NCBI GenBank assembly: GCA_949082785.1
Contig: CARVLU010000003.1
Location: forward strand, 9,133-73,132
Source: an uncultured Alphaproteobacteria bacterium
Lineage (GTDB): Bacteria > Pseudomonadota > Alphaproteobacteria > Rs-D84
Length of the DNA stretch: 64,000 nucleotides
Direction of reading: 5' to 3'
Each line of letters starts with the position of its first letter. Position 1 is the first letter of the stretch. Both the position numbers and the translations under genes were made by a program. This document shows positions 4,487 to 49,600 of the stretch, in pieces. The notes under the pieces were generated by a model. The model searched no databases and was not told the origin of the DNA. It saw only the letters and a list, made by a program, of their open reading frames with translations.

Positions 4487-4999
4487 ATGCCGAATCTAAA
4501 CGTCGGATTGCTTTCGACAATGTGGGGGCAGAATGCGACGGCCGTGAGTGCCGCCGATCAGGCATGCGCCAACTGCTATTGCTGTACCAATGGGACACAG
4601 TTCGCCTGCAAGGGCACATGTTATTACGACGAAAGGTGCTGTATGGGTATGATATGCCCGGAGGGACAGATTTGGGATTCCGAACAAGGAAAATGTGTTG
4701 ACGAACCCGTCGTAAAATTCTGTATGAGTGGCACCTATCCCACAGCAACCAGCTGTAAACCATGCCCGGAAACCACAGATTTTTCATCCACAAACGCCAG
4801 ATGCAGTGCATCATCCCCAGGTGGAACCATAGGTGGCAGTGCTGGCGACACAAGTATTTCACTGGGCATAGAATCGTGTTACATGCCCAAGGAATACCTA
4901 TCCCTAGAAGGCGGCGGCACATGCGAATACACCGATGTTTCTGGAACATTTGAATTTACCCGGAACTGTAACTATTCCGCACGGATTGAACTGGAATAA
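4487..4999 (+). CDS. small cysteine-rich protein, paralogous family member (C-terminal C-P-C ... CY ... GTFEFT ... CNY module)
   Basis: 170-aa ORF, 20 Cys; C-terminal module shared with 13737, 22498, 27585, 48723, 49016 genes; followed by strong terminator. Confidence 0.75.
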   Translation: MPNLNVGLLSTMWGQNATAVSAADQACANCYCCTNGTQFACKGTCYYDERCCMGMICPEGQIWDSEQGKCVDEPVVKFCMSGTYPTATSCKPCPETTDFSSTNARCSASSPGGTIGGSAGDTSISLGIESCYMPKEYLSLEGGGTCEYTDVSGTFEFTRNCNYSARIELE

Positions 5000-5026
5000 A
5001 AAAACGCCCCGACCGGGGCGTTTTAA
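4997..5026. terminator. bidirectional rho-independent terminator (AAAAAACGCCCCGACCGGGGCGTTTT)
   Basis: GC hairpin flanked by A-run and T-run; identical copy at 5378-5404. Confidence 0.85.
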
Positions 5027-5339
5027 CGTGTACGCGGCGGATGATAATAACGCAACGAATCCAGCACATATTGACGCCGTGCCAGTTCCAGCTGTTCTTT
5101 CTTGATTTTCAAATCATCACGATATAAATCGTTGTGTGTTTTTAACTGGCTGTAAATACCGTCCATGCACAACGCAATAAATATTGCGCACCCGGCAATA
5201 ATCCAACGCCGCCCCCCCCCACAGATTTTACCCGAACCGGATCGTCCGAAGTGCCCATTTGGGATTTAATATTGGCATCCACCTTAATCGGTTGATTTTT
5301 TATGTGTATAAATTTATCTTCTATCATCGTATTTCCCAT
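5023..5339 (-). pseudogene. small membrane-anchored coiled-coil protein (FtsB/DivIC-like?) interrupted by frameshift at C9 homopolymer
   Basis: the 5339..5142 frame ends 23 codons after the G9 run; a +1/-2 change in the run joins it to a downstream frame (RRWIIAGCAIFIALCMDGIYSQLKTHNDLYRDDLKIKKEQLELARRQYVLDSLRYYHPPRTR, stop 5023) giving a ~105-aa TM + coiled-coil protein. Confidence 0.5.
5212..5220. repeat. C9/G9 homopolymeric tract inside small ORF (candidate slip site or sequencing-error site)
   Basis: nine consecutive C on + strand. Confidence 0.9.
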
Positions 5340-5377
5340 TTATATCCACAATACATTTCCCATGCCATTTATCAAGT

Positions 5378-5404
5378 AAAAAAACGCCCCGACCGGGGCG
5401 TTTT
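5378..5404. terminator. bidirectional rho-independent terminator (identical to 4997-5026 copy)
   Basis: AAAAACGCCCCGACCGGGGCGTTTT. Confidence 0.85.
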
Positions 5405-5414
5405 AATCATGCGA

Positions 5415-6446
5415 TTACAACCATTTCCACGGCTGCACCAGTTTCAGCAAACCGTACGCGGTACGTTTATCTGCGAACGCATTTCCACAACGCGGACATA
5501 CGATAAACGGTGCCAGCATGGCTTTGACCTTTTTAAACAGTGTGAACCATACAAACAGCCCCACCGCCCATGCAGCCACAACCAATCCCCACGCAACATA
5601 ACCGAAATATTTGTTCACGGTCCCGGTGATAATCTGAATCACGCCGACATTGGATTTTTCCAAATCGTTATAGATTTTTGTTGCCACCGGCCATGACGAC
5701 GGACGCCACGGATAAACATGCTGGATACCGTAATTGGTCAGCAACGTTGTCCCCAACCCGCCGGAATTTTTATCCAGCTGGGTCTTGATGGCTTCGTCAA
5801 TCATTTTGTCGAATTCCATTTGCAGAACGCCCGCCAAATCTTTTTCGATTTTATCCAGCTTTGCGTTCACCTGTTCGGCGATATTGTCCACCTTGGCAAT
5901 GGCCTGGTTCGCCTGATCGACGGCGCCATCGGCGCGGTCAATGGCATGGTCCGCAGACGCCAGCGCATTGTCAATCGCATCGGTTTTTACCCCGAATTTG
6001 CCCGCAATCCCGGTCAGTTTTTTAACACCGCTGGTGGTTTCCTTGGCCTTGGCCGTGGATTCTTTGGCGGCGGCAGTCTTTTCTTTGGCCGCGGCGGTGG
6101 TATCGGTCACCCGGTCCACGGCACCGCCGACCATTTTCACCTGGTCGATGGCGAATGCGACGGGCTTTTCCAGATTAATAGACTTCTTAATCCCATCCAG
6201 CAATTTTTCATACTGCTGCACAATATTGCGTTGCAAGTCAAAGAACATCGATACCACAATCGATTTTTTAATCGGTTGGGAATACGTGTTTTTAACATGC
6301 AGCGGCGCCCAAATCACCAGCGCAATCCACAACACCGACACAATCGCAAATACGCGCTTGGTCCATGTGACATAAGACGTCTTTTTCGCAACGGTTTTTG
6401 CACCGCCGCGGTCGATGACTTCGACTTCTTTTTTCTTTCTTGGCAT
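5415..6446 (-). CDS. hypothetical membrane protein with coiled-coil/Ala-Lys-rich region and C-terminal CPRCG zinc-ribbon-like motif
   Basis: 343-aa ORF, N-terminal TM (VFAIVSVLWIALVIWAPL), second TM near C-terminus, CxxC motif. Confidence 0.65.
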   Translation of the reverse strand: MPRKKKEVEVIDRGGAKTVAKKTSYVTWTKRVFAIVSVLWIALVIWAPLHVKNTYSQPIKKSIVVSMFFDLQRNIVQQYEKLLDGIKKSINLEKPVAFAIDQVKMVGGAVDRVTDTTAAAKEKTAAAKESTAKAKETTSGVKKLTGIAGKFGVKTDAIDNALASADHAIDRADGAVDQANQAIAKVDNIAEQVNAKLDKIEKDLAGVLQMEFDKMIDEAIKTQLDKNSGGLGTTLLTNYGIQHVYPWRPSSWPVATKIYNDLEKSNVGVIQIITGTVNKYFGYVAWGLVVAAWAVGLFVWFTLFKKVKAMLAPFIVCPRCGNAFADKRTAYGLLKLVQPWKWL

Positions 6447-6504
6447 GTGTGTTTCTCCTTTCCTGGGTATAATACGATTTTATGGCCACCGGTTTCAACT
6501 GAAA

Positions 6505-6843
6505 TTATCGCGCCATAAACATGTCATGGAACATTTTAATGCGCGGGCGCAAAATCTGGTCCATTTGGCGCACCACCGGATGATTTTGATAAACATCAAC
6601 AACATCGGACATGGTGTCAAAGTACGCCTGGGCCTGGTCTTCGTCATCGAACGCCGTCACTTCGACCGATGTGTCGGACGTGTATGTACCGCCCCGCCCC
6701 ATCAGATACAAAGAATAGACGTATTTTGTCACATCTTCGTCCCGAATGGACGTTGCCAGATAGATTTTATCCGTCAGGTTCAGCCGCATTTTCGGCCGCG
6801 CCCCAAACGCAATTTCATGATTTTGACTGTTTTTATCTGTCAT
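6505..6843 (-). CDS. hypothetical protein
   Basis: 112-aa ORF immediately downstream of tgt (3-nt gap), same strand. Confidence 0.55.
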   Translation of the reverse strand: MTDKNSQNHEIAFGARPKMRLNLTDKIYLATSIRDEDVTKYVYSLYLMGRGGTYTSDTSVEVTAFDDEDQAQAYFDTMSDVVDVYQNHPVVRQMDQILRPRIKMFHDMFMAR

Positions 6844-6845
6844 GG

Positions 6846-7973
<1,128 letters not shown>

Positions 7974-9248: not shown

Positions 9249-9258
9249 CAAAGCCCCC

Positions 9259-9663: not shown

Positions 9664-9664
9664 A

Positions 9665-10687: not shown

Positions 10688-10689
10688 TT

Positions 10690-13463: not shown

Positions 13464-13491
13464 TTGCAACATTAACAAAATTCAATATAAT
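13464..13491 (+). promoter_or_regulatory. sigma70-type promoter TTGCAA-16-TATAAT for leader A
   Basis: near-consensus hexamers with 16-nt spacer directly upstream of conserved leader. Confidence 0.5.
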
Positions 13492-13497
13492 AACAAT

Positions 13498-13705
13498 CGA
13501 ATTCATTAGATTGGATTCGGGACGTCGAAAATCCCTTATTAGTCCGGCAGAAATGTCGTTAAAACATTATGGCTTTTGCCATTTCCCCGACACCAGGTCG
13601 GGTTGTTGCGGTTATACAACAGGATTTATCCGAAAACCGCAAGGTCATTGACTAATATGATTTTTCGAACTTCCCGACCACCAATATTTTGGTGGTTTTT
13701 GTTTA
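13498..13705 (+). promoter_or_regulatory. type-1a structured leader RNA (copy A) ending in intrinsic terminator GACCACCAATATTTTGGTGGTTTTT
   Basis: ~85% identical blocks with 22271-22484; 5' segment CGGGACGTCGAAAATC can pair with GATTTTTCGAACTTCCCG adjoining the terminator; conserved internal hairpins. Confidence 0.6.
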
Positions 13706-13736
13706 ACAAAAAAACAAAAGAAGGAAATGAAAAATC

Positions 13737-14192
13737 ATGAAAAAGCTGACAACATGTATTGCACTGGCCGCGATTTGCAGCCCCGCGCTGGGTATCGTCA
13801 CCAATCCCGACCTGTTGGCATGTTTATGCGATGATGCACTGACACCATCGGTCCCCCAGGGTTCATATTGTCCGGACGGAACATACTGTCCATATAAATG
13901 TCCGGGCTGCACCAATATCAATTGGACATCATCATCAACCGGGTATGAATCACGCATAAGGGCCACATGCGATATTTATTCAGGCAACTGTAACAAAACC
14001 ACCGAATATCGTTGCGCAGCCGGATATTACGGCAATACGTTAAATGGCAATTCCGGATGTTCGGCATGCCCCAGGGGCGGCACGTCCCCCGCCGGCAGCA
14101 AGTCCATAACATCATGCTATCTGCCCAATGGGACATCTGGGACCGACAGCACCGGCAGTTATGTTTATACATCAGATTGCTATTACAATTAA
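13737..14192 (+). CDS. secreted cysteine-rich protein, family member (signal peptide MKKLTTCIALAAICSPALG)
   Basis: 151 aa, 18 Cys; YRCAAGYYGN...SGCSACP...SCYLP...GSYVYTSDCYY shared module. Confidence 0.8.
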   Translation: MKKLTTCIALAAICSPALGIVTNPDLLACLCDDALTPSVPQGSYCPDGTYCPYKCPGCTNINWTSSSTGYESRIRATCDIYSGNCNKTTEYRCAAGYYGNTLNGNSGCSACPRGGTSPAGSKSITSCYLPNGTSGTDSTGSYVYTSDCYYN

Positions 14193-14447
14193 TCTGATGC
14201 CGGACAAGGCAAGAAAAAACACATCACCAACAGATAAAATCCCCGGCGAACGCCGGGGTGTCCTGGATTACTTCCGGGTCCCGCCATCGGGTTATCCCCG
14301 GTCGAAATTTTGAATATTGGGACCTTTAGAATGCCAACATTTTTTCGACCGGCCCAAAATGCCAGGGCATTCGGGCAATGGCGGGTTGTCGTTTTTGATG
14401 GTATGGTCATCGCGGTTTTCGAGAGAGAAAATCGTCCCCATCAACAA

Positions 14448-14640
14448 CAAAACCACCTGTGGATAAAGGTGGTTGGAGATTAGCAATCTATTAACAGTAA
14501 ATAGTGTCGATATTCAATATATTCTCGACTCTCCAACCCTGGTTGGATTTTTCATCTTGAAGCAAGACGACTGTTAAGGAGTGGCTAAACTCCACGATGT
14601 GAAATCCACATCGCATTTTAATTATATATAAATATTTTCT
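14448..14640 (-). ncRNA. orphan copy E of type-1b leader element (possible sRNA or decayed gene leader)
   Basis: contains hairpin with conserved loop GAATATATTGAATA, CCAACC/GGTTGGAG/CTCCAACC alternative pairing and terminator CCACCTTTATCCACAGGTGGTTTT; no cys-rich CDS downstream. Confidence 0.45.
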
Positions 14641-14707
14641 TATTTTCCAGTAAATTATAAAAAAAGAAAGGGTTAATCCCCCTTCTTTTCTACTGGTTTT
14701 TCTACAA

Positions 14708-14905
14708 AACAAAACCACCAGAAAATTCAGGTGGTTGGAGATTAGCAACTATTAACAGTAATAGTGCGATATTCAATATATTTTCGACTCTCCAACCATG
14801 TTGGACTTTTACATCATGTCAAAAGACATAACGACTGTTAATAGGTTGCTAAACCCACATCGGCAACACGCCGACACGTAATATATTATATATGTTTTTT
14901 TTGCG
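14708..14905 (-). ncRNA. orphan copy F of type-1b leader element with own TATAAT promoter
   Basis: tandem duplicate of copy E (about 85% identity), conserved loop GAAAATATATTGAATA, terminator CCACCTGAATTTTCTGGTGGTTTT. Confidence 0.45.
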
Positions 14906-15057
14906 AATTCCAGGGATTTTTTATGGACGAATAAAGGCGATTGGGGTCTAAGAACTATCGTTCGATGAACATAGCACGATTTATTTGAATCAAAGATTCT
15001 TATTCATCGCACCCCAACCACATTTATTATACACATTTTTTCTGACAATTGTACGAA

Positions 15058-15545
15058 TTTTCTGGATTACCGGGCGCTTACTCTCCTTTGTCATTGCGAA
15101 CGAAGTGAAGCAATCCAGTCAAATAATGAACTATTCCTTGCTATTCCTGGATTGCCGCAGTCGTTTCACTCCCTCGCAATGACAGGGGTGTTTAATTGCT
15201 CAAAACCGGGCGCTTACTCTCCTTTGTCATTGCGAACGAAGTGAAGCAATCCAGTAAATAGTGAACTATTCCTTGCTATTCCTGGATTGCCACGCGGCGA
15301 CGTTCCGTCTTGCTCGCAATGACAGGGGTGTTTAATTGCTCAAAACCGGACACTTACTCTACTTTGTCATTGCGAACGAAGTGAAGCAATCCAGTGAATA
15401 TGAACCTTGCCGCTTTCCTGGATTGCCACGCGGCGACGTTCCGTCTTGCTCGCAATGACAATGGGGATGCAGCGCCTGGCTTTGTGTCTTGCCTGCTTCA
15501 TCACACTTGTTCATTGCGAGAGAAGCGACACAATCCAGTTAATAA
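15058..15545. repeat. three and a half tandem ~140-bp repeats, each containing an inverted pair TTGTCATTGCGAACGAAGTGAAGCAATCCAG / CTGGATTGCC...CGCAATGACA
   Basis: direct inspection; related units at 43738-43839 and 44336-44545. Confidence 0.85.
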
Positions 15546-15574
15546 AAGTGCCCGCCGAACGGCGGGACACAAAA

Positions 15575-15604
15575 CAAAAAATCCCGCCGGTTGGCGGGAT
15601 TTTT
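15575..15604. terminator. bidirectional rho-independent terminator
   Basis: AAAAAATCCCGCCGGTTGGCGGGATTTTT just downstream of rlpA stop. Confidence 0.85.
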
Positions 15605-18857: not shown

Positions 18858-19256
18858 ATGACACACGCTATGATTGGGCATATGAAGCAACTGACGGACA
18901 CGGATATTCGGCAAATGGGGGATGGTGAATTTATCCCCGACACGCGCAGCGTTAATCGCAGCGTGCGCCGCCATTTGCGTCTGGGGCAATTAATCCCGAC
19001 GCCGCCCGCGGCCGCACCGCGGTTTGCGCGACTGGACCTGCATCATAATACCCAGGAACAAGCCTGGCAGAAAATTAACCAACTGGCCGACAGTGGTGTG
19101 CGCGATGCCCAGATTATAACGGGCGCCAGTGGTATTTTAAAAATCAAGTTTCAACAATGGGTCACGGCCAGCACATTGGCCGAAAAAATCATTTCATGGG
19201 CGCCGGTTAATAACGGCAGCTTTGTGGTGAAATTCAAACGCCGCGCCGCCAATTAA
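18858..19256 (+). CDS. Smr domain-containing protein
   Basis: LDLHHNTQEQAWQKINQLADSGVRDAQIITGASGILKIKFQQWV matches Smr (DLHG..EA...IITGKG..LK..V..WL). Confidence 0.75.
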   Translation: MTHAMIGHMKQLTDTDIRQMGDGEFIPDTRSVNRSVRRHLRLGQLIPTPPAAAPRFARLDLHHNTQEQAWQKINQLADSGVRDAQIITGASGILKIKFQQWVTASTLAEKIISWAPVNNGSFVVKFKRRAAN

Positions 19257-20422
19257 AACGATATCTTTAAATTAACATGCCCGCTGTGGGATGTGTAATC
19301 CCGGCGCATATCCAATTGATATTCCAATCCAACCGAAAACATCGGCGCATACAGACGCAATCCCAATCCGCCCTGGAACGCCGCGCGGGCGGGCACTTCG
19401 ACCGGCACGTCATAGAATTGACCACTCAGCACGCACACCCGCACATCACTGTTACCATGACGCAGCGCATCGTATCCCCCGCCCAGCCGGATATTCGGAC
19501 GCAACCGATAATCAATGCCGGTAAATTCATATTCAACCATTACCCCCGCCATCGCCGTAATCGTGTTAAAGAACCATTTTTCAAACGCCTGGGCGGCGGC
19601 ATCAATATGCTTGTCCGTGCGGATATAGCTGTACCGCGCCCCAATATGCGGCGTCATCACCCAATGCCCGCGCGTCAGATGGATGCCCCCGCTGACCTGG
19701 CCGGCCATGTATTCGGTGTCATAATCGCCACTGTCAACGATGCCGGCAACAGTTTTGTCGTTGGCCCAGCGGGTCTTGCCGCCCGTTGCCGCCACATTTA
19801 AATACATGCCGTTGGCCGCATAATACTGCGCCGCCAACACCAACCCGTTGCTGACCGCGTCGGTATAAATCCGCCCGTGATGGGTGTCGGTCATACTGCG
19901 CGTATATCCAATCGACAGGGCAAATCCTTCGGTCAAAAAGGTGTTTGCACGAATACTGACCCCGGTGGTGTTTGTGCGAAAATCCCCATTTTTACGGGAA
20001 TCAAAATCATTTGTCCCACCAAATACCGTCCCGTCGATGGTGAATACCTGGCGCGTGGGGTCGCACTTTGAATTCGTCCATTGACATCCCGTGCGGCGCC
20101 GCCCCAGCGGCATGCCATACGCGTCCAGGGATGCCGCAATATGGCGGTCTGTTTCAAACAAAGTAATGGCCGTGTCGTTGTGCCCGATAATCGACACCAG
20201 GTCATAAAACGTCGCCAAATCGGAATTATGCGCATCGGTCATACGGGCCGCAATTGCCCCACCCGGCCCCAGATTTCCAAAGATACTGGCCCAGGCATCC
20301 GCCACACCCACCAAATAATCCGGCGCGCCACCGGACTGGGCCATTGCGTTCCCAAACGATGTCCGCGCCGCATGTGCGGTACCACAAAACAATAATACGA
20401 CAACAGGGAAAATATTTTTCAT
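19253..20422 (-). CDS. outer membrane beta-barrel protein, autotransporter beta-domain-like
   Basis: signal peptide MKNIFPVVVLLFCGTAHA, alternating beta-strand pattern, C-terminal ...NLKISF aromatic terminus. Confidence 0.65.
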   Translation of the reverse strand: MKNIFPVVVLLFCGTAHAARTSFGNAMAQSGGAPDYLVGVADAWASIFGNLGPGGAIAARMTDAHNSDLATFYDLVSIIGHNDTAITLFETDRHIAASLDAYGMPLGRRRTGCQWTNSKCDPTRQVFTIDGTVFGGTNDFDSRKNGDFRTNTTGVSIRANTFLTEGFALSIGYTRSMTDTHHGRIYTDAVSNGLVLAAQYYAANGMYLNVAATGGKTRWANDKTVAGIVDSGDYDTEYMAGQVSGGIHLTRGHWVMTPHIGARYSYIRTDKHIDAAAQAFEKWFFNTITAMAGVMVEYEFTGIDYRLRPNIRLGGGYDALRHGNSDVRVCVLSGQFYDVPVEVPARAAFQGGLGLRLYAPMFSVGLEYQLDMRRDYTSHSGHVNLKISF

Positions 20423-20487
20423 GACGCGCCTTATTTTTTGATTATAATAAAAGCCGCCATATAAAATTTTAACAGGAACCATTTGCT

Positions 20488-22270: not shown

Positions 22271-22484
22271 TGAATCCACGGTTGTGGGTTCGGGACTTCG
22301 AAAATCCCTTATCTGGTCGACATATTGTGTATGTCGTTATTTTGTGCGCGGCGCCTTGCCACGCCCCCCGACATTGGTCGGGTTGTTGCAGTTATACAAC
22401 AGGGGCATCGCCCCAAAGGCTGCAAGGTCATTATCAGATATGATTTTTCGAACTTCCCGACCACCAGATTCTGGTGGTTTTCTT
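22271..22484 (+). promoter_or_regulatory. type-1a structured leader RNA (copy B) ending in terminator GACCACCAGATTCTGGTGGTTTT
   Basis: homologous to 13498-13705 including GGGTTCGGGACTTCGAAAATCCC, GGTCGGGTTGTTGCAGTTATACAACAGG, GCAAGGTCATT, GATTTTTCGAACTTCCCGACCACC. Confidence 0.6.
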
Positions 22485-22497
22485 TGATAACCAAAGG

Positions 22498-23109
22498 ATG
22501 GAAGAAGTGAAGAAAATCAAACAAATAGGTAAAGTCTGGATAATGCTGACGCTGGTCATTATCCCCGGCGTGGCACGGGCGCTGTTGGTGCCACCGGTGG
22601 GCGAATGCGTGGGCGGCACATGCCCCAGCGATGGGCAATATATTGATGGCATCATGTACGGATGCGGGCGTGCAACGGAATGTTACTGCGTCAACAGTGA
22701 CGGCGAAGGAATCAATGTTCCCTGTGGATGCTTTGGCGACGCGGATTGCAAAACCAGCGGTTACGGATGTATTAACGGCCAATGCGCAAAATGCCGCAGT
22801 TGTACAAATTGTACCAGCAGCAACACCTGGGATTCTGTCGCCACCGGGTATCAACGCCGGACCACAAAAACATGTGGGTGTGACGGGACATGCAACACGT
22901 CATATTCTTACCGATGCGCACCCGGATATTTCGGCAACAGTTATAACGGCACATCGGGATGCACGCGTTGCCCGACCGACGGGGGCGTTACCGGGACATC
23001 TGTGGCGGGAACAACCGCACGAACGGGATGCTATGTCGGGGCAAACACGACGGGCCGCGATAATTCCGGGGCGTTTGAATTTACCGGAAATTCTTATTAT
23101 TGTGACTAA
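22498..23109 (+). CDS. secreted cysteine-rich protein, family member (signal peptide MEEVKKIKQIGKVWIMLTLVIIPGVARA)
   Basis: AAGGA SD 5 nt upstream; 28 Cys; CTNCTSSNTWDSVATGYQRR...YRCAPGYFGN...SGCTRCP...GAFEFTGNSYYCD shared module. Confidence 0.8.
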   Translation: MEEVKKIKQIGKVWIMLTLVIIPGVARALLVPPVGECVGGTCPSDGQYIDGIMYGCGRATECYCVNSDGEGINVPCGCFGDADCKTSGYGCINGQCAKCRSCTNCTSSNTWDSVATGYQRRTTKTCGCDGTCNTSYSYRCAPGYFGNSYNGTSGCTRCPTDGGVTGTSVAGTTARTGCYVGANTTGRDNSGAFEFTGNSYYCD

Positions 23110-24140: not shown

Positions 24141-24445
24141 ATATGCCCGACATAGATATTGACAATCTGCCCGGGACGCCATTCCAACGCGATGTATGGC
24201 GCGCATTAACACAAATACCGCGCGGTGAAACGCGCACATACGCCGAATTGGCCGCCATGGCGGGCCATCCGACGGCAATCCGTGCGGTGGCCAATGCGGT
24301 TGGCAAAAATCCCATGCCGCCCATCATTCCATGTCACCGCATTATCCGCAGTGACGGCAAAATCGGTGGATATTCCGCCCCGGGCGGCATCGCGACCAAG
24401 CGGCACCTGTTGCAAACCGAAGGCGTCAAATTCCCCGATTTTTAA
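24137..24445 (+). CDS. methylated-DNA--protein-cysteine methyltransferase family protein (DNA-binding/active-site domain only)
   Basis: IPCHRI active-site motif (PCHR), TYAELA HTH; start overlaps upstream stop (ATGA). Confidence 0.8.
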   Translation: MNMPDIDIDNLPGTPFQRDVWRALTQIPRGETRTYAELAAMAGHPTAIRAVANAVGKNPMPPIIPCHRIIRSDGKIGGYSAPGGIATKRHLLQTEGVKFPDF

Positions 24446-24720
24446 GTCAACGGGCATATATCTTCAAAGCGCCAGACACCCGTATCATCACTGTATTCAG
24501 TATCGGCCGGTGCGAACATCATGCACACCCCGGCGGGCGTTGGCAATAAACAGCTGACCGCGTCACCCGCACTGCTGTATCCGGTGGGGCACGCGCCATC
24601 GACGACAATCATAGCTGATTCATTAATCGCGACATAGCCGGACGGGCAACTGGTTCCGGGCGCCGCCGCCATCACAGACGTTGAAACGATTATACCCACC
24701 AATAAACACACCAAACGCAT
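24442..24720 (-). CDS. small secreted cysteine-containing protein (distinct from main family)
   Basis: 92 aa, signal peptide MRLVCLLVGIIVSTSVMAAA, 6 Cys. Confidence 0.55.
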   Translation of the reverse strand: MRLVCLLVGIIVSTSVMAAAPGTSCPSGYVAINESAMIVVDGACPTGYSSAGDAVSCLLPTPAGVCMMFAPADTEYSDDTGVWRFEDICPLT

Positions 24721-24722: not shown

Positions 24723-25148
24723 TTAATCACCCAAATTGGAAAATAAAATTGCTTGGAAATCGGTGGATGCCGCTGCAAAAGTTGCACAGTTCCGCGCACA
24801 AGATTGAGCACAATTATACGCCGATTCCCTATCTTCCAAATACACCCAAGACGATACAGCGGGTGTAACAATTTTACACCAACAATACCGATTATTCTCA
24901 CTGGTGGTACTGATCTTAACTGTATCCGATATGGCACCTATTCTGTTGCTCTTTTGGCTTCCACAAAACATAACGCCATTTATCTGAATCTTATTACAAC
25001 TAAATGTCCAGTTAGATTGGCCCAATGCCACTGCCTGATTATACGAACAATTCGCACTGGGCGTTAATTTAACACATTTTGTTGCGGCATGTACGGATGA
25101 CGTTGCCGCCATTAATCCCGCAGTAAAACACAACAAATAAATTTTCAT
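24723..25148 (-). CDS. small secreted cysteine-containing protein
   Basis: signal peptide MKIYLLCFTAGLMAATSSVHA, 10 Cys; GGGGGGA SD upstream; 3-nt gap to downstream gene. Confidence 0.55.
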   Translation of the reverse strand: MKIYLLCFTAGLMAATSSVHAATKCVKLTPSANCSYNQAVALGQSNWTFSCNKIQINGVMFCGSQKSNRIGAISDTVKISTTSENNRYCWCKIVTPAVSSWVYLEDRESAYNCAQSCARNCATFAAASTDFQAILFSNLGD

Positions 25149-25214
25149 TTTGTTCGCAATCCCCCCATTTTTTGCCGCAATTAACCGGTGGTTTAGATTA
25201 GGCAATTTTTCCGT

Positions 25215-25243
25215 TTGACACACGCCCAGAAATTGTATATTTT
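25215..25243 (+). promoter_or_regulatory. orphan consensus promoter TTGACA-17-TATATT on + strand (no CDS downstream before terminator at 25372)
   Basis: perfect -35 with 17-nt spacer; would give a ~150-nt transcript ending at the 25372-25397 terminator. Confidence 0.3.
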
Positions 25244-26679: not shown

Positions 26680-27453
26680 ATGAAAATAAATCAAGCGTTC
26701 ACAATCTTGCAATCGGCCGGCGGTATTCGCGCGGCGCGCATCATTACAAACAAATTTAAAAATCCGTCTACAATCCGTGTGTTATGGATGGCGCGTCAAT
26801 TGCGCCGCGGTGTGCCGGTGGCAAAAATCATCCATGAAAAATGGTTTTATGGCCTGGCGTTTTACACGAACAGATTCACATTGGACCCGCGGCCCGATAC
26901 AGAAACACTGGTGTCGGCGGTTATCACCGATTGCGCGGATGCAACGGCGCGCCGCATTTTAGATTTGGGCACCGGGACCGGTTGCGTTCTGGGGGCATTG
27001 GTCAAAAATATTGCGGGCACATCCGGCGTCGGCATTGACCGGTCACTGGGCGCCGTGCGCGTTGCACGCCGCAATATGCGGACACTGGGGCTGGATAAGA
27101 ATACAACAATTTTATGGCGCAGTTTTAACACACCGCAAATGCCCGGTGCGCCGTTTGACATAATTGTATCAAATCCGCCATACATCGCACATGGTGACAC
27201 CCGCGTCAACGACGCCGCACGACACGACCCGGCGGCGGCGCTGTATGCCGCAAACAACGGATTTGGGGCGTACGAAAAAATTTCACAAAACGCACGCACA
27301 TGGTTGCGCCCGGGCGGACGGATTTATCTGGAAATCGGGGCGGACATGGGGACAATGGTGCGTGAAATCTTTGCCCGCACGGGATGGACGTTTGTGCGGG
27401 CCGAATCCGATTTGGGCGGTATCCAACGCGTGCTGGTTTTTACACTTGCATAA
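26680..27453 (+). CDS. prmC: release factor glutamine N5-methyltransferase PrmC (HemK)
   Basis: LDLGTGTGC SAM motif, NPPY catalytic motif. Confidence 0.85.
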   Translation: MKINQAFTILQSAGGIRAARIITNKFKNPSTIRVLWMARQLRRGVPVAKIIHEKWFYGLAFYTNRFTLDPRPDTETLVSAVITDCADATARRILDLGTGTGCVLGALVKNIAGTSGVGIDRSLGAVRVARRNMRTLGLDKNTTILWRSFNTPQMPGAPFDIIVSNPPYIAHGDTRVNDAARHDPAAALYAANNGFGAYEKISQNARTWLRPGGRIYLEIGADMGTMVREIFARTGWTFVRAESDLGGIQRVLVFTLA

Positions 27454-27474
27454 AATCCGGTAATGCGATATAAT
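27446..27474 (+). promoter_or_regulatory. sigma70 promoter TTGCAT-17-TATAAT of type-2 leader copy 2
   Basis: consensus hexamers, overlaps prmC stop. Confidence 0.55.
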
Positions 27475-27499
27475 TTGGGGCATCGGATGGGGTGAATAT

Positions 27500-27580
27500 A
27501 TGCCTAGTCCAAGGGAACGATTACAATCCCCATACGTGTTTTTGAAAAAATCCCCATTTTCTGCCCCCTGTTGTTTATGA
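27500..27580 (+). CDS. conserved upstream small ORF / leader peptide candidate (MPSPRERLQSPYVFLKKSPFSAPCCL)
   Basis: 26 codons; first 20 codons align gap-free with 4393-4452 uORF; TGA stop 4 nt before main ATG. Confidence 0.4.
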   Translation: MPSPRERLQSPYVFLKKSPFSAPCCL

Positions 27581-27584
27581 TTTT

Positions 27585-28061
27585 ATGCCGAATCCAATCG
27601 TTGGTTTTTGTGTCATGCAAATACCCCAAACAACGCGGTCGGCATGGGCCGCCAATAACTCATGCAGCACAACCATATGTACAAATTCCACCCAGTCCGG
27701 TGTGCCATATGGCCATAATTGCAGAACCAGCCAAACTGTCTGTGACGGGAACATAGGATATCGTTCATGCGTAACATGTGACCGTGCCGTATCCACCCCG
27801 GACCAGATGATAGGCGCCGAATTGTCCGGTTGCAGTGGGGTGTTCATGACATATTCAACATGCAAATGCTTAAAAGGCTATTATTCCAGTGCCGAAAAGT
27901 GTGTTCGATGCCCGGCGGATGCCGATGGCAATTATGGCACCACCGCGGCGGCAGGCGACACAACCCGACCAACAGACTGTTACCTGACGCGCGCCACAGA
28001 ATACCAGGATGACAGCGGGTCATATTCTTACACCCAAAACTGTTATTACAGCAACGGTTAG
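27585..28061 (+). CDS. cysteine-rich protein, family member (no classical signal peptide)
   Basis: 158 aa, 16 Cys; CKCLKGYYSSAEKCVRCP...DCYL...GSYSYTQNCYYSNG shared C-terminal module. Confidence 0.75.
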   Translation: MPNPIVGFCVMQIPQTTRSAWAANNSCSTTICTNSTQSGVPYGHNCRTSQTVCDGNIGYRSCVTCDRAVSTPDQMIGAELSGCSGVFMTYSTCKCLKGYYSSAEKCVRCPADADGNYGTTAAAGDTTRPTDCYLTRATEYQDDSGSYSYTQNCYYSNG

Positions 28062-36734: not shown

Positions 36735-37826
36735 ATGTTACGCAAAAACCTTTTTTCCTTGTTACTGGTGGGTGGTGTCGCAATGGCACATCCCCACATC
36801 GCCAATGCCTGTACCGGCATTACATTAACCCCAAAAGATAAATCTGTCGTCGTTGCCCGCACCATCGAATGGTCCGGCAGTGAAATGAAATCAGATTACG
36901 TCATCGTCCCCCAGGGATACACACAAAAATCCTTTGTCCCGGGCGGGGAAAAAGACGGTCTGGAATTTTCCGCACGATACGGATATGTCGGCCTGGCGGT
37001 GGTCGAACCCGAATACATTGTCGAAGGCTTGAACGAAGCCGGCCTGTCTGCGGGTCTGTTTTATTTCCCGGGATACGGTCAATACGAAGCCTATGACCCG
37101 GCCGACAATGCGACCACCATTTCCGATTTCCAATTGGTGTCGTGGATGCTGTCCCGGTTTTCCACCATCGACCAAATCCAAGATGCCATCCGCGATGTCC
37201 GCGTTGTCGGAATTGACCCGCGGGCATCAACCGTGCATTGGCGCATCGCCGACATGACCGGCCGCCAGGTGGTTCTGGAAATCGTCGATGGCGTTCCGCA
37301 TTTCTATGAAAACACGCTGGGCGTGTTAACCAACGCCCCCGGGTTCGAATGGCAGATGACCAATTTAAATAACTATGTCAATCTGACACCTGGCACCGCG
37401 GGGCCGACCGATATACGCAATCTGCGGATGAAATCATTTGGCGGCGGCAGTGGCATGTTGGGACTGCCGGGGGACGTAACCCCGCCGTCGCGCTTTGTCC
37501 GCGCCGCGTTCTATGCTGCAACCGCCATCCCCCAGGACACCGCATACGGCGCCGTGATGCAGGCATTTCACATCCTGAACAACTTTGACGTGCCGTTGGG
37601 CACCCAATACCCCATTGACCAGGTGCCCACCCCAATGCCCAGCGCGACGCAATTTACATCCGCAACCGATATGACAAACCAGATTTTGTATTATCGCACA
37701 ATGTACAACAGCGTTATTCGCGCCATCGATTTGTCTAAAATCAATTTCAGCGATGTTAAATACCAGGTGCACCCCATGGACGCCATCCGGGAACAAACGG
37801 TCATTAATATCCAACCGGACGCATAA
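36735..37826 (+). CDS. choloylglycine hydrolase / penicillin V acylase family Ntn-hydrolase (paralogue 1)
   Basis: signal peptide then nucleophile Cys (ANA-CTGITL); ~65% identical to 39416..40498. Confidence 0.8.
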   Translation: MLRKNLFSLLLVGGVAMAHPHIANACTGITLTPKDKSVVVARTIEWSGSEMKSDYVIVPQGYTQKSFVPGGEKDGLEFSARYGYVGLAVVEPEYIVEGLNEAGLSAGLFYFPGYGQYEAYDPADNATTISDFQLVSWMLSRFSTIDQIQDAIRDVRVVGIDPRASTVHWRIADMTGRQVVLEIVDGVPHFYENTLGVLTNAPGFEWQMTNLNNYVNLTPGTAGPTDIRNLRMKSFGGGSGMLGLPGDVTPPSRFVRAAFYAATAIPQDTAYGAVMQAFHILNNFDVPLGTQYPIDQVPTPMPSATQFTSATDMTNQILYYRTMYNSVIRAIDLSKINFSDVKYQVHPMDAIREQTVINIQPDA

Positions 37827-39415: not shown

Positions 39416-40498
39416 TTAATCGATTGTGACGTCGATTACGGTTTCCTGTTTTTGCATATCCAATGGATGCGACTGAAACGCAACGGTTTCAAAATCAATA
39501 CGCGACAGATCAATCGCCCGCACGGCGCGACTGTACATCGTATGATAATAGATAACCCGATTGGTAATATCCGTGGCCACCGTCCACTGGGTCGCCGACG
39601 GCATGTCATCCGGCACGCCGCCAACCGGGAATTGCACACCGACCGGCACATCGAAATTGTTCAGGATATGGAACGCCTGTAATACGGTTTGATACCCGCC
39701 GTCCTGGGGCACGGCGCAATTTTGCAAAAAAGCCGCCCGAACAAACCGCGACGGCGGCGTCATATCCCCCGGCAATCCGTGCAGGCCGCTGCCACTGCCG
39801 AACGCGGTCATCCGCAGGTTGCGAATAGTTGTCGGCCCGGCGGTGCCTGGATGCAGATTGACATAGTTATTCAGATTTGTTGTCATCCACGGGAATCCCG
39901 GCGCGTTGGTCAAAACACCGATTTCATTTTCATAAAATTGCGGCACACCATCGATGATTTCCAGGACCGCCTGGCGGCCGCCGGGTTCGATAATACGCCA
40001 ATGGACCGTTGTTGTTCGCGGGTCGGCGTTGATAATGCGGATGTTTTTGATGGCATCTTTGACCTGGTCAATGGTGGAAAACTGGGACAGTATCCATGAC
40101 ACCAACTGAAAATCGGCCAGTGTTTCATCACGGTATTGCGCATCATAATCCACATACTTGCCATATGCCGGGAAATAGAACAGCGCCGCGGCCAGGCCCG
40201 CTTCGTTAACGCCATCGATTACGAATTCAGGCTGTTCCACCCCCAGCCCCGCAAACCCGTATCGCGACGTGAATTCCAATCCGCCCGCCGTCCCATCGGG
40301 CAAGATTGAACGCACGGTCCGTCCCCGCGGAACGATGACGTACATGTTATCCAGTTCTTCGCGGGACCAATCCATTGTCCGCGCCACGACCAGTGAATTA
40401 TTTTTGGACCGTAACGTTATCCCGGTACAGGCATCCGCCCGCCCCATCACGCCGCACACGGCCGCAACCGTCATAAATACAACAGATAAATATTTCAT
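39416..40498 (-). CDS. choloylglycine hydrolase / penicillin V acylase family Ntn-hydrolase (paralogue 2)
   Basis: MKYLSVVFMTVAAVCGVMGRADA-CTGITL; inverted relative to paralogue 1. Confidence 0.8.
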   Translation of the reverse strand: MKYLSVVFMTVAAVCGVMGRADACTGITLRSKNNSLVVARTMDWSREELDNMYVIVPRGRTVRSILPDGTAGGLEFTSRYGFAGLGVEQPEFVIDGVNEAGLAAALFYFPAYGKYVDYDAQYRDETLADFQLVSWILSQFSTIDQVKDAIKNIRIINADPRTTTVHWRIIEPGGRQAVLEIIDGVPQFYENEIGVLTNAPGFPWMTTNLNNYVNLHPGTAGPTTIRNLRMTAFGSGSGLHGLPGDMTPPSRFVRAAFLQNCAVPQDGGYQTVLQAFHILNNFDVPVGVQFPVGGVPDDMPSATQWTVATDITNRVIYYHTMYSRAVRAIDLSRIDFETVAFQSHPLDMQKQETVIDVTID

Positions 40499-42700: not shown

Positions 42701-42813
42701 TTTATACTCCATTTGGAACAGACACATTATATCAGAAAAAATACCCATTGTGTATGAAATAAAGCGAAACCGCCCAAACGGGCGGTTAAGCAACAGGGGA
42801 ACTGATATTAAAC

Positions 42814-43839: not shown

Positions 43840-43877
43840 TCAATAAACCAACACACCTGGCGTGATATAATTCTTGA

Positions 43878-44063
43878 ACATTCGCGCGGGATGCGATATA
43901 CTGGATTCGCATTGGGAAACCGGTGTAGGCTTAGAAACCTTTTCACATCGTCGGAATCGACGTAAAACTCCAACTGTTGGTTGGGGGGCTGCGAATATAT
44001 TGAATAAGCAGCGCTATCCATGTGAATAGTTTCTAACCTCCAACCGCCCACAATGTTGTCGGG
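43878..44063 (+). promoter_or_regulatory. type-1b leader copy G upstream of XRE-like regulator: TG-extended -10 promoter, hairpin with loop GAATATATTGAATA, terminator CCGCCCACAATGTTGTCGGGCGGTGTTTTTT
   Basis: shares conserved loop and CTCCAAC/GGTTGG/CCTCCAACC alternative-pairing logic with copies C-F. Confidence 0.5.
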
Positions 44064-44097
44064 CGGTGTTTTTTATAACGTAAAAGGAGTTTAAACT

Positions 44098-44325
44098 ATG
44101 TCAAAAATATTAATCGATGCCCAGTATTACGGCAATATCATGCGCTGTGCGCGACAACATTTGAAAATCAGTGCCGGTGACGCGGCGGCATTATTGAAAA
44201 TGACCAAGAAAGATTATCTGAAATGTGAACGTGGCCGCGATTTGTTCGCAGAAGGTACCCTGCGCCGCGTTTTCCATGGTGCGTTTGCGATGTTGATTAT
44301 CAAGCGTGGCCGCGTCGCGTGTTGA
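44098..44325 (+). CDS. small XRE/Cro-like HTH DNA-binding protein (tentative)
   Basis: AAAGGAG SD 7 nt upstream; ISAGDAAALLKMTKKDYLKCERGR resembles HTH_XRE. Confidence 0.55.
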   Translation: MSKILIDAQYYGNIMRCARQHLKISAGDAAALLKMTKKDYLKCERGRDLFAEGTLRRVFHGAFAMLIIKRGRVAC

Positions 44326-44335
44326 CGTGGCGCGT

Positions 44336-44545: not shown

Positions 44546-44565
44546 AAATGACAATGGTGACGAAA

Positions 44566-44591
44566 CAAAAAATCCCGCCGTGGCGGGATTG
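44566..44591 (-). terminator. rho-independent terminator of secG
   Basis: AATCCCGCCACGGCGGGATTTTTT on minus strand. Confidence 0.8.
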
Positions 44592-44596
44592 GTATC

Positions 44597-44914: not shown

Positions 44915-44960
44915 TCTTTATCCTTAAATTTCTTATGTGCGAATTCTAGCCATCCTGCCC

Positions 44961-46481: not shown

Positions 46482-46542
46482 CCTTTCTTTGACGGATATA
46501 TTAAAACTTGAAATGAATTTGCGCAAGCTATAATATACGCAT

Positions 46543-48069: not shown

Positions 48070-48094
48070 AAATCCCCGCAATGGGGATTTTTTA
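48066..48094 (+). terminator. rho-independent terminator
   Basis: AAAAATCCCCGCAATGGGGATTTTTT. Confidence 0.85.
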
Positions 48095-48101
48095 ATACTT
48101 C

Positions 48102-48130
48102 TTTACTTTATGCGGTTTATCCCATATAAT
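48102..48130 (+). promoter_or_regulatory. sigma70-type promoter TTTACT-17-TATAAT for leader C
   Basis: hexamers and spacing. Confidence 0.45.
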
Positions 48131-48136
48131 ATTGAT

Positions 48137-48348
48137 GCCCGAACGTGTTGTTTGGGCGGGGCCTCATAACCTCTGATTTAGGCGTCGGAATTCATTCAAA
48201 TGGCGGGCCACGCGCACCCATTTTATGATGCAGACGAAAATAAAACTCCTGATTTTCCGGTCAGGAGGGTTGTGGAATATCAAATACGCAACGCAATTCC
48301 TAAAAATTGTTATGAGCCTCCTGACCACCAATTTGTTGGTGGTTTTTG
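48137..48348 (+). promoter_or_regulatory. type-1b structured leader RNA (copy C) with antiterminator/terminator alternative pairing and terminator CCTGACCACCAATTTGTTGGTGGTTTTT
   Basis: CTCCTGA/TCAGGAGG hairpin; GGTCAGGAGG can alternatively pair CCTCCTGACC overlapping terminator 5' arm; hairpin GTTGTGG-AATATCAAATAC-GCAAC. Confidence 0.6.
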
Positions 48349-48372
48349 CTTTGTACCACAGGAGGTTTTCAT

Positions 48373-48708
48373 ATGAAGCAACATTTAACAGTCGCCCTGG
48401 TGGCCATACCCATTTGGGCGGCGACATTACCCCACGGCATGGCCGCATGCCAAAGCATGATTCAATGCCGGCAATCCGCGGGCAACAATTGCAACTGTTG
48501 TCCGACCGGGACATCCGAAACACAATACACGTGCCCCGACGGATGGGATGCCCGCGGCAGCCAATGTTACCGGGACGCAACCCGTTCATCGGACAGCATC
48601 GGATACACCGAAACCACATACGGCACATGCGCCGGAACGGCGGGCGGCTTTGTCCAATGCTACAAAGCCCAATGCGGAAACCCGATTCCAAACTGCAAGC
48701 TTTTATAA
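48373..48708 (+). CDS. secreted cysteine-rich protein (N-module-type), family member
   Basis: GGAGG SD; signal peptide MKQHLTVALVAIPIWAATLPHGMAA; 14 Cys; ends 14 nt before next gene. Confidence 0.7.
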   Translation: MKQHLTVALVAIPIWAATLPHGMAACQSMIQCRQSAGNNCNCCPTGTSETQYTCPDGWDARGSQCYRDATRSSDSIGYTETTYGTCAGTAGGFVQCYKAQCGNPIPNCKLL

Positions 48709-48722
48709 CGGGGGTACTGGAA

Positions 48723-48998
48723 ATGAAGAAATTTGTATTCTGTGCCATCATGGCATGTATCAGCGGTGCGGCGTACGGGGCATGCACAACGGCCGGCACC
48801 ACATATTACGCGTGCAAGCCGGGGTATTATCTGTCGTCCGGAAATTGTGTCCGGTGCCCGTCATCCAGCGATGGATACGGCACAACAACGGACACCAACA
48901 CCGGCGGGCGCACATCATGCTATGTCCCGTCGGGCACCACCGGCAGCGATGGGTCGGGTTCATATACATACATGGCCAATTGCCATTATGTGGAATAA
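48723..48998 (+). CDS. secreted cysteine-rich protein (C-module-type), family member
   Basis: signal peptide MKKFVFCAIMACISGAAYG; YYACKPGYYLSSGNCVRCP...SCYVP...GSYTYMANCHY shared module. Confidence 0.7.
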   Translation: MKKFVFCAIMACISGAAYGACTTAGTTYYACKPGYYLSSGNCVRCPSSSDGYGTTTDTNTGGRTSCYVPSGTTGSDGSGSYTYMANCHYVE

Positions 48999-49015
48999 CA
49001 CGGCGATCCATAAAA

Positions 49016-49600
49016 CTATTGAATATAATAGCAATCCTGGGTGAACGTGAAACTGCCCGCGGAATCTGCCCCATTGTTCCCGGCCGCCAGATAACATGAT
49101 GTAATCGCGGTGGCCCCGGGGGCGGACGTGGCATTCATATTATGGGCGGGCGAACACTGCGTACATCCCGACGTGCCGTTGGTGGTCGTGCCCCAATAAC
49201 CGGCCGCGCATCTGTATTCCCACGATGTTTTGCATGTATTGCAATCACACCGCCGCATGGCCCGCCGTTCATATCCCGCACCCCCCGCCGACCAAGTGGC
49301 GTCACTGACACAATTGCTGCACCCGGTACAGGATTTTTCACAAACGCTGTATTCATAACTGCATCCGGTTTTGCTGTCATACCCCGTTTTTTCAACCAAA
49401 GTAAAACCGGTGCGACATGTGCGACATGTGGTCACCCGTTCCCCGTTCATGCACCCCAATGTCGTTCCATCGGAACATCCAAATATAATGGGCATCTGGC
49501 CGTCATCCGTGCAATGTTCCCATGAACACACCAGTGCATGCGCGCCGCGCACCAACATCAGATTCATCCCCGCAGCAATAACCGCAGCATATAATTTCAT
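49016..49600 (-). CDS. secreted cysteine-rich protein, family member
   Basis: AAAGGAG SD; signal peptide MKLYAAVIAAGMNLMLVRGAHA; CSNCVSDATWSAGGAGYERR...YRCAAGYWGT...SGCTQCS...GSFTFTQDCYYIQ closely parallels 22498 gene. Confidence 0.8.
   Translation of the reverse strand: MKLYAAVIAAGMNLMLVRGAHALVCSWEHCTDDGQMPIIFGCSDGTTLGCMNGERVTTCRTCRTGFTLVEKTGYDSKTGCSYEYSVCEKSCTGCSNCVSDATWSAGGAGYERRAMRRCDCNTCKTSWEYRCAAGYWGTTTNGTSGCTQCSPAHNMNATSAPGATAITSCYLAAGNNGADSAGSFTFTQDCYYIQ

Follow-up and report, generated by a model that had tools for sequence, protein, structure and literature searches.

A multi-copy family of cysteine-rich, predicted exported proteins and its sRNA-Xcc1-related leader RNA in an alphaproteobacterium of the order Rs-D84

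The small RNA (sRNA) family sRNA-Xcc1 (RF02221) was first found in Xanthomonas campestris and has stood in the catalogues for 15 years as a short sRNA that acts in trans. It is described as about 90 nucleotides (nt) long, is listed in Rfam under the type gene/sRNA, and occurs on integrons, transposons and plasmids. Other described systems invite comparison as well: T-box leaders precede many genes in one genome, and the variant-specific surface proteins (VSPs) of Giardia and the variable lipoproteins of mycoplasmas are large variable surface families of small-genome, host-dependent microbes. Here we analyse a stretch of 64,000 nt (hereafter the window) from an uncultured alphaproteobacterium of the GTDB lineage Rs-D84 (GenBank assembly GCA_949082785.1, contig CARVLU010000003.1, positions 9,133 to 73,132 of the forward strand), in which genes for a family of small cysteine-rich proteins stand behind copies of a large structured leader RNA that is related to sRNA-Xcc1.

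Candidatus Enterousia, a member of the order Rs-D84, has genomes of 0.75-1.0 Mb (~0.9 Mb for bacteria of this type), lacks respiration and most biosynthesis, and is thought to live off other cells, its members having been proposed to be obligate symbionts or parasites (PMC12306168). Rs-D84/Enterousia-type bacteria are widespread in animal and human guts. In the literature on Enterousia and Rs-D84 we found nothing about this cysteine-rich family or its leader RNA.

We consider it probable, if well short of certain, that the window carries a lineage-specific, multi-copy family of predicted exported proteins under the control of a shared cis-acting double-pseudoknot RNA of attenuator or riboswitch-like type, a relative of sRNA-Xcc1. 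For so small a genome, six or seven family genes and nine leaders in 64 kb represent a large investment, which singles the family out as a prime candidate for an interface with partner cells.

A diversified family of small cysteine-rich proteins

A preliminary description of the window, made from its letters alone, had proposed seven genes for small secreted cysteine-rich proteins as a single paralogous family. All seven open reading frames (ORFs) were recovered at the positions and on the strands it gave, and their lengths agree with its range of 90-210 residues; its range of 14-28 cysteines was wrong at both ends. The seven ORFs, named below by their first position, are:

4487-4999, plus strand: probable divergent family member (hidden Markov model (HMM), type-B leader), 170 residues, 17 Cys, N-terminus MPNLNVG, weak signal peptide
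13737-14192, plus strand: core family gene (BLASTP, HMM), 151 residues, 15 Cys, classical signal peptide MKKLTTCIALAAICSPALG
22498-23109, plus strand: core family gene (BLASTP, HMM), 203 residues, 21 Cys
27585-28061, plus strand: core family gene (BLASTP, HMM), 158 residues, 14 Cys, N-terminus MPNPIVG (type-B subgroup)
48373-48708, plus strand: predicted exported Cys-rich ORF, not detectably homologous, 111 residues, 11 Cys; first gene of an operon, behind a type-A leader
48723-48998, plus strand: core family gene (BLASTP, HMM), 91 residues, 8 Cys; second gene of that operon
49016-49600, minus strand: core family gene (BLASTP, HMM), 194 residues, 19 Cys; the protein used for AlphaFold2

Homology was assessed by composition-corrected BLASTP of the seven proteins against one another, with the search space set to proteome size, and by an HMM built from the five core genes and scored against every six-frame ORF in the window. 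The core genes (13737, 22498, 27585, 48723 and 49016) were interlinked at E values of 2e-3 to 5e-27 and, by these sequence comparisons, are a real paralogous family. The single BLASTP link of 4487 was to 27585 (E 0.04), and its match to the HMM (E 7e-4) makes it a probable, divergent sixth member. The seven-gene paralogy first proposed does not extend to 48373, which had zero BLASTP matches among the seven proteins and an HMM E value of about 1; none of the remaining window ORFs scored below E 0.4. Two adjacent small ORFs on the minus strand, 24442-24720 and 24723-25223, have signal peptides and 6 and 11 Cys and were considered as members, but were rejected (HMM E 0.87 and unmatched, respectively; both without a leader). 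The former has a marginal match to the Pfam 'CC domain' (E 1.2e-4).

A profile of 70 family sequences, searched against 1.84 billion cluster representatives, matched 1,426 clusters (50% identity) at E≤1e-3, 768 at E≤1e-10 and 164 at E≤1e-30. These numbers bear on the possibility that there is no real family and that the similarity arose by chance from a biased composition. Glycine, serine, threonine, cysteine and asparagine make up 41-53% of residues, and other Cys-containing proteins of the window (48373, 24442 and 24723) are indeed unrelated. Against chance stand composition-corrected links down to 5e-27, hundreds of homologues at E≤1e-30, invariant positions that are not cysteines, and conserved leaders common to the members. 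For the five core genes, BLASTP, the HMM and the homologue searches refute chance similarity, and we give that reading practically no weight.

The preliminary description suggested that the family is diversifying. Among the 70 sequences, mean pairwise identity is 26% in the N-terminal domain, 47% in the middle and 64% over the last ~68 residues, and a near-invariant pattern that includes residues other than cysteine is retained: Y-R-C-A-A-G-Y-Y-G ... N-G-T-S-G-C-x2-C ... S-C-Y ... D ... G ... C-x-Y. The C-terminal strings originally quoted were found in the proteins. The module built from them, C-x2-C-P ... C-Y ... G-S-[YF]-x-[YF]-T ... C-Y-Y, aligns in 13737, 22498, 27585, 48723 and 49016, is degraded in 4487 and is missing from 48373. 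It has 5 conserved Cys and long 10-residue hairpins.

It had also been suggested that 48373 and 48723 are a split N-module and C-module. Their sequences contradict this, as 48373 has no significant similarity and each protein has its own signal peptide. Instead, 48723 starts 15 nt past the stop codon of 48373 and both lie behind one leader, forming a two-gene operon. Since 48723 comprises a signal peptide and the C-terminal module and nothing else, the C-module appears to be an autonomous unit.

Signal peptides were judged by a hydropathy heuristic (maximum 10-residue Kyte-Doolittle) and inspection. Five of the seven proteins score 2.0-3.0, in agreement with the five classical signal peptides first reported, and most homologues begin MKK followed by a hydrophobic stretch. 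We infer that the family is Sec-exported and disulfide-rich. The annotated ATG of 22498 abuts an AAAGG that resembles a ribosome-binding site (RBS), and a GTG three codons on (22507) gives the family-typical MKKIKQ; this GTG may be the true start.

AlphaFold2, run on 49016 with the family alignment, returned an all-beta model with long two-stranded hairpins at a predicted local distance difference test score (pLDDT) of 84.7; residues 100-194 alone reached a pLDDT of 89.8 and a predicted template-modelling score (pTM) of 0.75. The best-supported reading of these models is that the C-module, of ~70 residues, folds on its own and has no detectable relative. The earlier comparison of its spacing, C-x2-G-Y-Y ... 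C-x2-C-P, with TNFR and ephrin-receptor-like repeats raises the alternative of a eukaryote-type TNFR, ephrin-receptor-like or furin-like repeat, acquired or converged upon for host mimicry. Such eukaryotic repeats, too, lie outside the cell, are rich in disulfides, consist of beta-hairpins and show C-x2-C and G-[YF]-[YF] spacing, and the top match of the full-length model in a Foldseek search of solved structures was indeed the EphA2 cysteine-rich domain. That match is insignificant (E 0.6), as is every other in the same search; a sequence-profile search of the PDB gave sushi domains only (E 0.7-1); and Ephrin_rec_like, GCC2_GCC3, TNFR_c6, Furin-like and VSP matched none of the seven window proteins or 70 members in Pfam, even at E≤1. 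The resemblance thus corresponds to weak top matches, and the sequence-profile and fold tests all fail. The family differs from these repeats in having no profile or significant fold match and a C-module with five conserved Cys, and descent or mimicry of this kind seems to us quite unlikely. Confidently predicted and without a solved relative, the C-module is a good target for structure determination.

The initial impression that this is not a described bacterial family also held. The seven proteins had no match in Pfam or NCBIfam, and a Pfam scan of the 70 members gave scattered single matches and no consistent family. A word-indexed search returned 65 homologues of 49016, none with a precomputed Pfam domain; those with names are 'hypothetical protein' entries from metagenome-assembled genomes (MAGs) of Alphaproteobacteria, apart from one labelled Muribaculaceae. 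Among GTDB contigs (one genome per species) 134 loci were confirmed, of which the best 80 were listed and used for the leader work. These best 80 of 134 all come from MAGs, mostly assigned to Alphaproteobacteria, Rickettsiales or Candidatus Enterousia, with a few labelled just Proteobacteria or 'bacterium'; judging by their sample names they stem from chicken, roe deer, rabbit and other guts, and counting them alone gives five to seven loci per genome. The exact 49016 protein occurs on 134 public contigs and the exact 13737 protein on 124.

A covarying leader with two pseudoknots

According to the preliminary description, each gene has its own promoter and regulatory leader. Our analysis supports this far more strongly than it was put, save for 48723, which shares the leader of 48373. 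Upstream of 13737, 22498, 48373 and 49016 lies a common block of ~200 nt ending in CCACC-loop-GGUGG-U5 (type A), and upstream of 4487 and 27585 a distinct one (type B). An iterated nhmmer profile collected 92 type-A copies from the window and the 80 loci, among them subtypes A1, A2 and A3. A covariance model built from A1 copies only, and run on the window without filters, found exactly seven type-A elements (E 3e-44 to 2e-4; next match E 0.16), and a structure-descriptor scan agreed with this census. Two other descriptor matches, at 42785 and 3565 on the minus strand, were unsupported by the covariance model and were discarded as false positives. The seven elements are:

13497-13722, plus strand: type-A (A2) leader of 13737; nhmmer E 5e-32; covariance model 33.2 bits, E 4e-7; RF02221 41.2 bits at 13596-13687
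22271-22487, plus strand: type-A (A2) leader of 22498, terminator 22461-22481; nhmmer E 7e-31; RF02221 30.2 bits
48143-48369, plus strand: type-A (A1) leader of the operon 48373-48723, terminator 48325-48347
49609-49836, minus strand: type-A leader of 49016; nhmmer E 1e-25; covariance model 81.9 bits, E 7e-20 (match 49609-49794); RF02221 30.8 bits
43914-44093, plus strand: compact type-A leader with the CUCCAAC variant of elements a, b and c (see below), both pseudoknot partners visible; covariance model 70.9 bits, E 5e-17
14688-14871, minus strand: orphan type-A leader with its own -10 box (14890-14885) and terminator, no ORF behind it; covariance model 67.8 bits, E 3e-16
14426-14608, minus strand: second orphan type-A leader, in tandem with the preceding one, with its own -10 box and terminator; covariance model 56.2 bits, E 4e-13

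The leader at 48143-48369 belongs to the seed of the covariance model, so that its score follows by construction, and the model's match to the 22498 leader spans 22320-22504 (plus strand, E 2e-4). In the 13737 leader, a -10 box TATAAT lies at ~13486-13491 and the terminator hairpin and U-run at 13678-13700. Together with two type-B copies, the window contains nine leaders, and all seven Cys-rich ORFs stand behind one, including the non-homologous 48373. Genes following leaders were assigned with an RBS-aware ORF picker, which mis-assigns 48373 (overlapping frame). By this assignment, 76 of 91 type-A leaders sit directly 5' of a family gene in the sense orientation, and a type-A or type-B leader can be recognised in at least 75 of the 80 family loci; these loci were collected via protein similarity, so that the association within them is ascertainment-biased and the window gives the unbiased picture.

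The A1 structure has 57 pairs in 10 helices, two of them pseudoknots. It was first drawn by eye from compensatory changes and then tested on a MAFFT alignment of 34 non-redundant A1 leaders. Standard pairs fill 95.5% of cells, compared to 84.9% with shuffled columns and 37-55% when 3' partners are slid by 1-3 columns. Changes on both sides affect 31 of the 57 pairs (18.8 expected), compensatory cells number 195 (51 in the control), and the covariation score is 0.318 (0.138 in the control). In the first pseudoknot (PK-A), the H2 hairpin loop pairs with the stretch immediately 5' of element c; its positions are paired in 100% of cells, with covariation in 4 of the 5 pairs. In the second (PK-B), the next six nucleotides pair with the H7 hairpin loop; it is 97% paired, 5 of 6 pairs covary, and there are up to five pair types. 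The pseudoknot partner sequences vary from copy to copy. Helix H3, which spans an internal hairpin, also covaries. G-U pairs are frequent, which assigns the structure to RNA of the gene-sense strand. RNAalifold, applied to a mixed-subtype alignment, recovered part of the structure only.

Promoter and terminator frame this structured domain. A -10 box (at most 1 mismatch) is found at a fixed upstream distance in 64 of 66 leaders, compared to 28.5% of random 70-mers, with a -35 box alongside it in 28 of 66 (6% in random sequence). In all copies, a covarying GC-rich stem of 5-7 bp and a U-run form an intrinsic terminator that separates the structured domain from the RBS; the full terminator is 98.1% paired in A1 leaders. 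The RBS lies 20-30 nt past the U-run, and the -10 box is at the 5' end of the leader only.

The same features could be read differently, with the leaders as independent, terminated genes for trans-acting sRNAs and the downstream genes as mere neighbours, expressed via read-through or from undetected promoters. Every element has its own -10 box and intrinsic terminator, two tandem copies are geneless, the copy-specific pseudoknot partners would confer specificity in trans, and Rfam lists sRNA-Xcc1 as an sRNA gene. The arrangement of the leaders argues for control in cis: the ~20-45 nt between U-run and start codon hold the RBS and are too short for a separate promoter; the great majority of copies lie sense and directly before a family gene; H3, by spanning the internal hairpin, ties the two halves into one molecule; and the complementarity between the RBS and element c is subtype-specific. 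We therefore regard free-standing sRNAs as an unlikely, though not negligible, account of the leaders.

About 1.4 kb of low-GC, non-coding sequence (14193-15600) surrounds the two orphans, which may represent either free-standing sRNAs or remnants of family genes that have been lost.

Type-B leaders are treated as a separate class because the type-A covariance model misses them. We found 17 copies, 15 of them in the loci and two in the window:

4339-4518, plus strand: type-B leader of 4487, taking in the start codon and first 7 codons (box 2)
27445-27617, plus strand: type-B leader of 27585, taking in the start codon and first 7 codons

In an alignment of 16 of the 17, the -35 and -10 boxes of type-B leaders are conserved, and the leaders contain a box 1, UAUGCC(U/G)AAUCCAAAGGGACGAUU, which recurs as a box 2, (A/G/U)UGCCGAAUCUAAACGUCGGUUUG, covering the start codon and first seven codons. 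The position of box 2 explains the odd conserved N-terminus MPN(L/P)NVG as conservation at the RNA level; the start codon itself varies among AUG, GUG and UUG. The two classes have a sequence in common, the 12-mer AAUCCAAAGGGA, which occurs 7 times in the loci (estimated chance expectation ~0.06) and in leaders only: five times near the 5' end of A2 leaders (L018, L020, L024, L028 and L034) and twice in type-B box 1 (L049 and L072). This distribution hints at a shared recognition element or a binding site for a common factor.

A candidate switch and the genes behind it

Three short elements of the type-A leader can form alternative helices. Element b (e.g. GGUCAGGAGG) may pair with upstream element a (CUCCUGA) in a local hairpin (97.9% paired) or with downstream element c (CCUCCUGACC), closing the 3' domain (98.2% paired). 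These helices were measured sequence by sequence because a MAFFT alignment of 78 non-redundant 3' domains places the a, b and c elements of different subtypes out of register; b:c helices average 9.0 bp and a:b helices 7.2 bp. The three elements co-vary through at least five variants (CUCCUGACC, CCUCCAACC, CCCCGACC, UUCCCGGCC and CUCCAGCC), plus CCUCCUGCC in the 49016 copy, where a, b and c read CCCUGUC, GGCAGGGGG and CCUCCUGCC. The RBS is complementary to element c, and in A1 leaders it reads (U)CAGGAG(A), a copy of element b.

Each unit consists, in this order, of a sigma-70-type promoter, a leader of 170-230 nt, an intrinsic terminator, the RBS and the gene, and our data suggest the following model. 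In a compact fold with b:c and both pseudoknots formed, the terminator would be weakened and the RBS left free, turning the gene on; in the a:b fold, the terminator would form and element c could mask the RBS, turning it off. A single signal would then govern the whole family along with a few envelope proteins and small helix-turn-helix (HTH) proteins. Both the direction and the logic of this switch are inferred, as is a surface or extracellular role of the proteins in a partner-dependent lifestyle.

Several observations weigh against this model and against the broader reading of an exported family under cis control. Covariation cannot tell a:b from b:c, as a and c are near-copies. The overlap between element c and the 5' arm of the terminator is 2 nt only (the last two Cs of c), and b:c pairing is a plausible, though not a compelling, means of antitermination. 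Complementarity between RBS and c (mean longest run 5.56, compared to 5.11±0.08 for permuted partners and 3.96 for shuffled ones) is a modest signal and confounded by phylogeny. The two orphans demonstrate that the RNA can occur geneless and fit a stand-alone sRNA equally well, and the frequency of leader-gene pairs outside the window carries the ascertainment bias described above. On the protein side, the signal peptide of 27585 is borderline (1.9 in the hydropathy heuristic, end AWA/A) and that of 4487 is weak (1.1).

Leaders also precede genes outside the family. In the window, the compact copy at 43914-44093 is followed by one such gene:

44098-44325, plus strand: 75-residue HTH-like ORF; Pfam HTH_31 (XRE-type) E 0.005, under the curated cut-off

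A homologue of this ORF stands behind a leader in locus L050 (5386-5545), and in L026 and L029, too, 3'-domain copies are followed by small HTH-like ORFs. All these ORFs may be regulators within the same regulon. Elsewhere, leaders precede an outer-membrane-type protein, a 552-residue signal-peptide protein and small predicted exported proteins. Since these are of envelope or exported kind, the leader appears to mark a regulon enriched in such proteins.

Ordinary housekeeping genes surround the members of the family (Era, PBP1, ComM, an M48 peptidase, an RlpA-like lipoprotein, a methyltransferase, a metallo-beta-lactamase-fold protein and GroES/EL). Given such ordinary surroundings, the leader-gene units seem to be dispersed single insertions that form no island. 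Directly upstream of the 4487 unit lies a long ORF (1698-4331, plus strand) with no Pfam match in the 743 residues scanned from 2100; its 5' end overlaps a tRNA-Gly (1789-1865, minus strand).

Other features of the window concern the envelope or the genome at large. Two ORFs, 36735-37826 (plus strand) and 39416-40498 (minus strand), encode paralogous choloylglycine-hydrolase-family (CBAH) proteins that are predicted to be exported (Pfam E about 1e-63); both have a Cys right after the predicted signal peptide, and they flank a tRNA-Gln and a small lipoprotein-like ORF. A 409-residue protein with an autotransporter beta-domain (19253-20482, minus strand; Pfam E 1e-17) is a further surface protein encoded in the neighbourhood. 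At 56337-58063 (minus strand) lies a pair of umuD-like (Peptidase_S24) and umuC-like (IMS, IMS_C, DUF4113) genes, an error-prone polymerase cassette whose retention in a genome of ~0.9 Mb is notable. The stretch 52000-56000, with a GC content of 0.39-0.43 (about 0.52 elsewhere), contains a tRNA-Asn (53322-53397) and several small ORFs and may be a foreign island.

Comparison with sRNA-Xcc1 and other described systems

At Rfam gathering thresholds, a scan of the window returned four tRNAs only, with no riboswitch or leader match. Below threshold, RF02221 matches at homologous positions in three of the seven type-A copies, at 41.2 bits (E 7.8e-4 for the whole window), 30.8 bits and 30.2 bits. 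The gathering score of 53 bits is not reached, and A1- and A3-type copies are unmatched; by the Rfam criterion, the leaders are not members of the family. The 3' domain of A2-type leaders aligns over the full 87-position model and has in common with sRNA-Xcc1 the closing helix, a hairpin with an AUACAA...GAA internal loop, a second hairpin and the CACC tail. We take the window leader to be a relative of the sRNA-Xcc1 class that is both divergent and extended.

We also considered four genuine RF02221 loci (68.8-72.6 bits), from plasmid-collection records assigned to Nitratidesulfovibrio, Pseudomonas, Neisseria and Aeromonas. Each of them has complements of 6-9 nt to the hairpin-2 loop and to the junction ahead of the closing helix, located 85-170 nt upstream, beyond the Rfam model and in the order of PK-A and PK-B in the window leader (chance expectation 0.004-0.07 per exact k-mer; for Aeromonas, the best hit of the script included G-U pairs, and an exact 6-mer partner of the loop was picked by eye). 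A sense ORF follows ~40-55 nt downstream in three of the four loci, annotated as a hypothetical protein in one and as a BRO-family protein in another and read from the sequence in the third. In L081 (1078-1272), L082 (1096-1280), L083 (580-770) and L084 (586-769), a hairpin and U-run lie between the upstream partners and the Rfam-defined RNA. Judged from the four loci examined, what is catalogued as sRNA-Xcc1 probably corresponds to the 3' portion of a larger, gene-proximal RNA, and the published boundaries of the family look too short.

The RNA results provide a covariation-supported structure for a large leader and suggest that sRNA-Xcc1, an RNA of mobile elements, is part of a larger structured RNA close to genes; its function thereby becomes testable in culturable bacteria such as Pseudomonas, Aeromonas, Neisseria and Xanthomonas. 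A bolder proposal, which we hold only tentatively, is that the leader represents an unrecognised class of large double-pseudoknot RNA switches, with sRNA-Xcc1 as its 3' half, that has been multiplied to dozens of copies per 0.9 Mb genome over an exported family of novel fold. If this were true, an orphan riboswitch or factor sensor would govern the organism's main interface with its partner cells.

The likeness to sRNA-Xcc1 also raises the possibility that the proteins are toxins or bacteriocin-like effectors, with the RNA as an antitoxin-like element or a means of tight repression. In the most widespread cassette of Xanthomonas integrons, sRNA-Xcc1 precedes the toxin gene symE and shares its orientation (bioRxiv 10.1101/2025.06.18.660453), and small, predicted exported, disulfide-rich and highly diversified proteins would suit such a role. 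Several observations speak against it: no immunity-like genes adjoin the units, whose neighbours are housekeeping genes; the proteins match no toxin family in Pfam or NCBIfam; the same leader precedes HTH proteins, the outer-membrane-type protein and the 552-residue surface-type protein; and other genuine sRNA-Xcc1 loci precede the BRO-family and hypothetical proteins rather than toxins. Toxicity thus seems improbable to us. Compared to type I toxin-antitoxin systems of the SymE/SymR kind, the window RNA is sense and upstream rather than antisense, and the proteins have signal peptides and no toxin-family match.

Beyond their common core, the window RNA and sRNA-Xcc1 differ in architecture and setting. 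At its 3' end the window RNA has a clear terminator, with an RBS after it, and upstream of b it carries an additional element, a, which was not found in the sRNA-Xcc1 locus L081. It is chromosomal, is present in many copies per genome and is tied to one protein family.

In layout, the type-A leader is similar to riboswitch and attenuator leaders, with a promoter-proximal structured domain leading through alternative helices to a terminator and an RBS. It also resembles T-box and riboswitch leaders in having many copies per genome on a functionally related gene set and strong covariation. Unlike the conserved ligand pocket of riboswitches, the pseudoknots are hypervariable between copies, and the putative antiterminator and the terminator overlap by just 2 nt.

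The proteins invite comparison with Giardia VSPs and mycoplasma lipoproteins. They have no homology to either and no evident membrane anchor or lipobox, and their control appears to be exerted by an RNA leader, with no sign of recombination- or repeat-based switching and with identical alleles on >100 independent contigs. The likeness lies in the organisation of the family: as in those systems, many diverged paralogues, each with a signal peptide, a variable part and a conserved part, are encoded by a partner-dependent organism.

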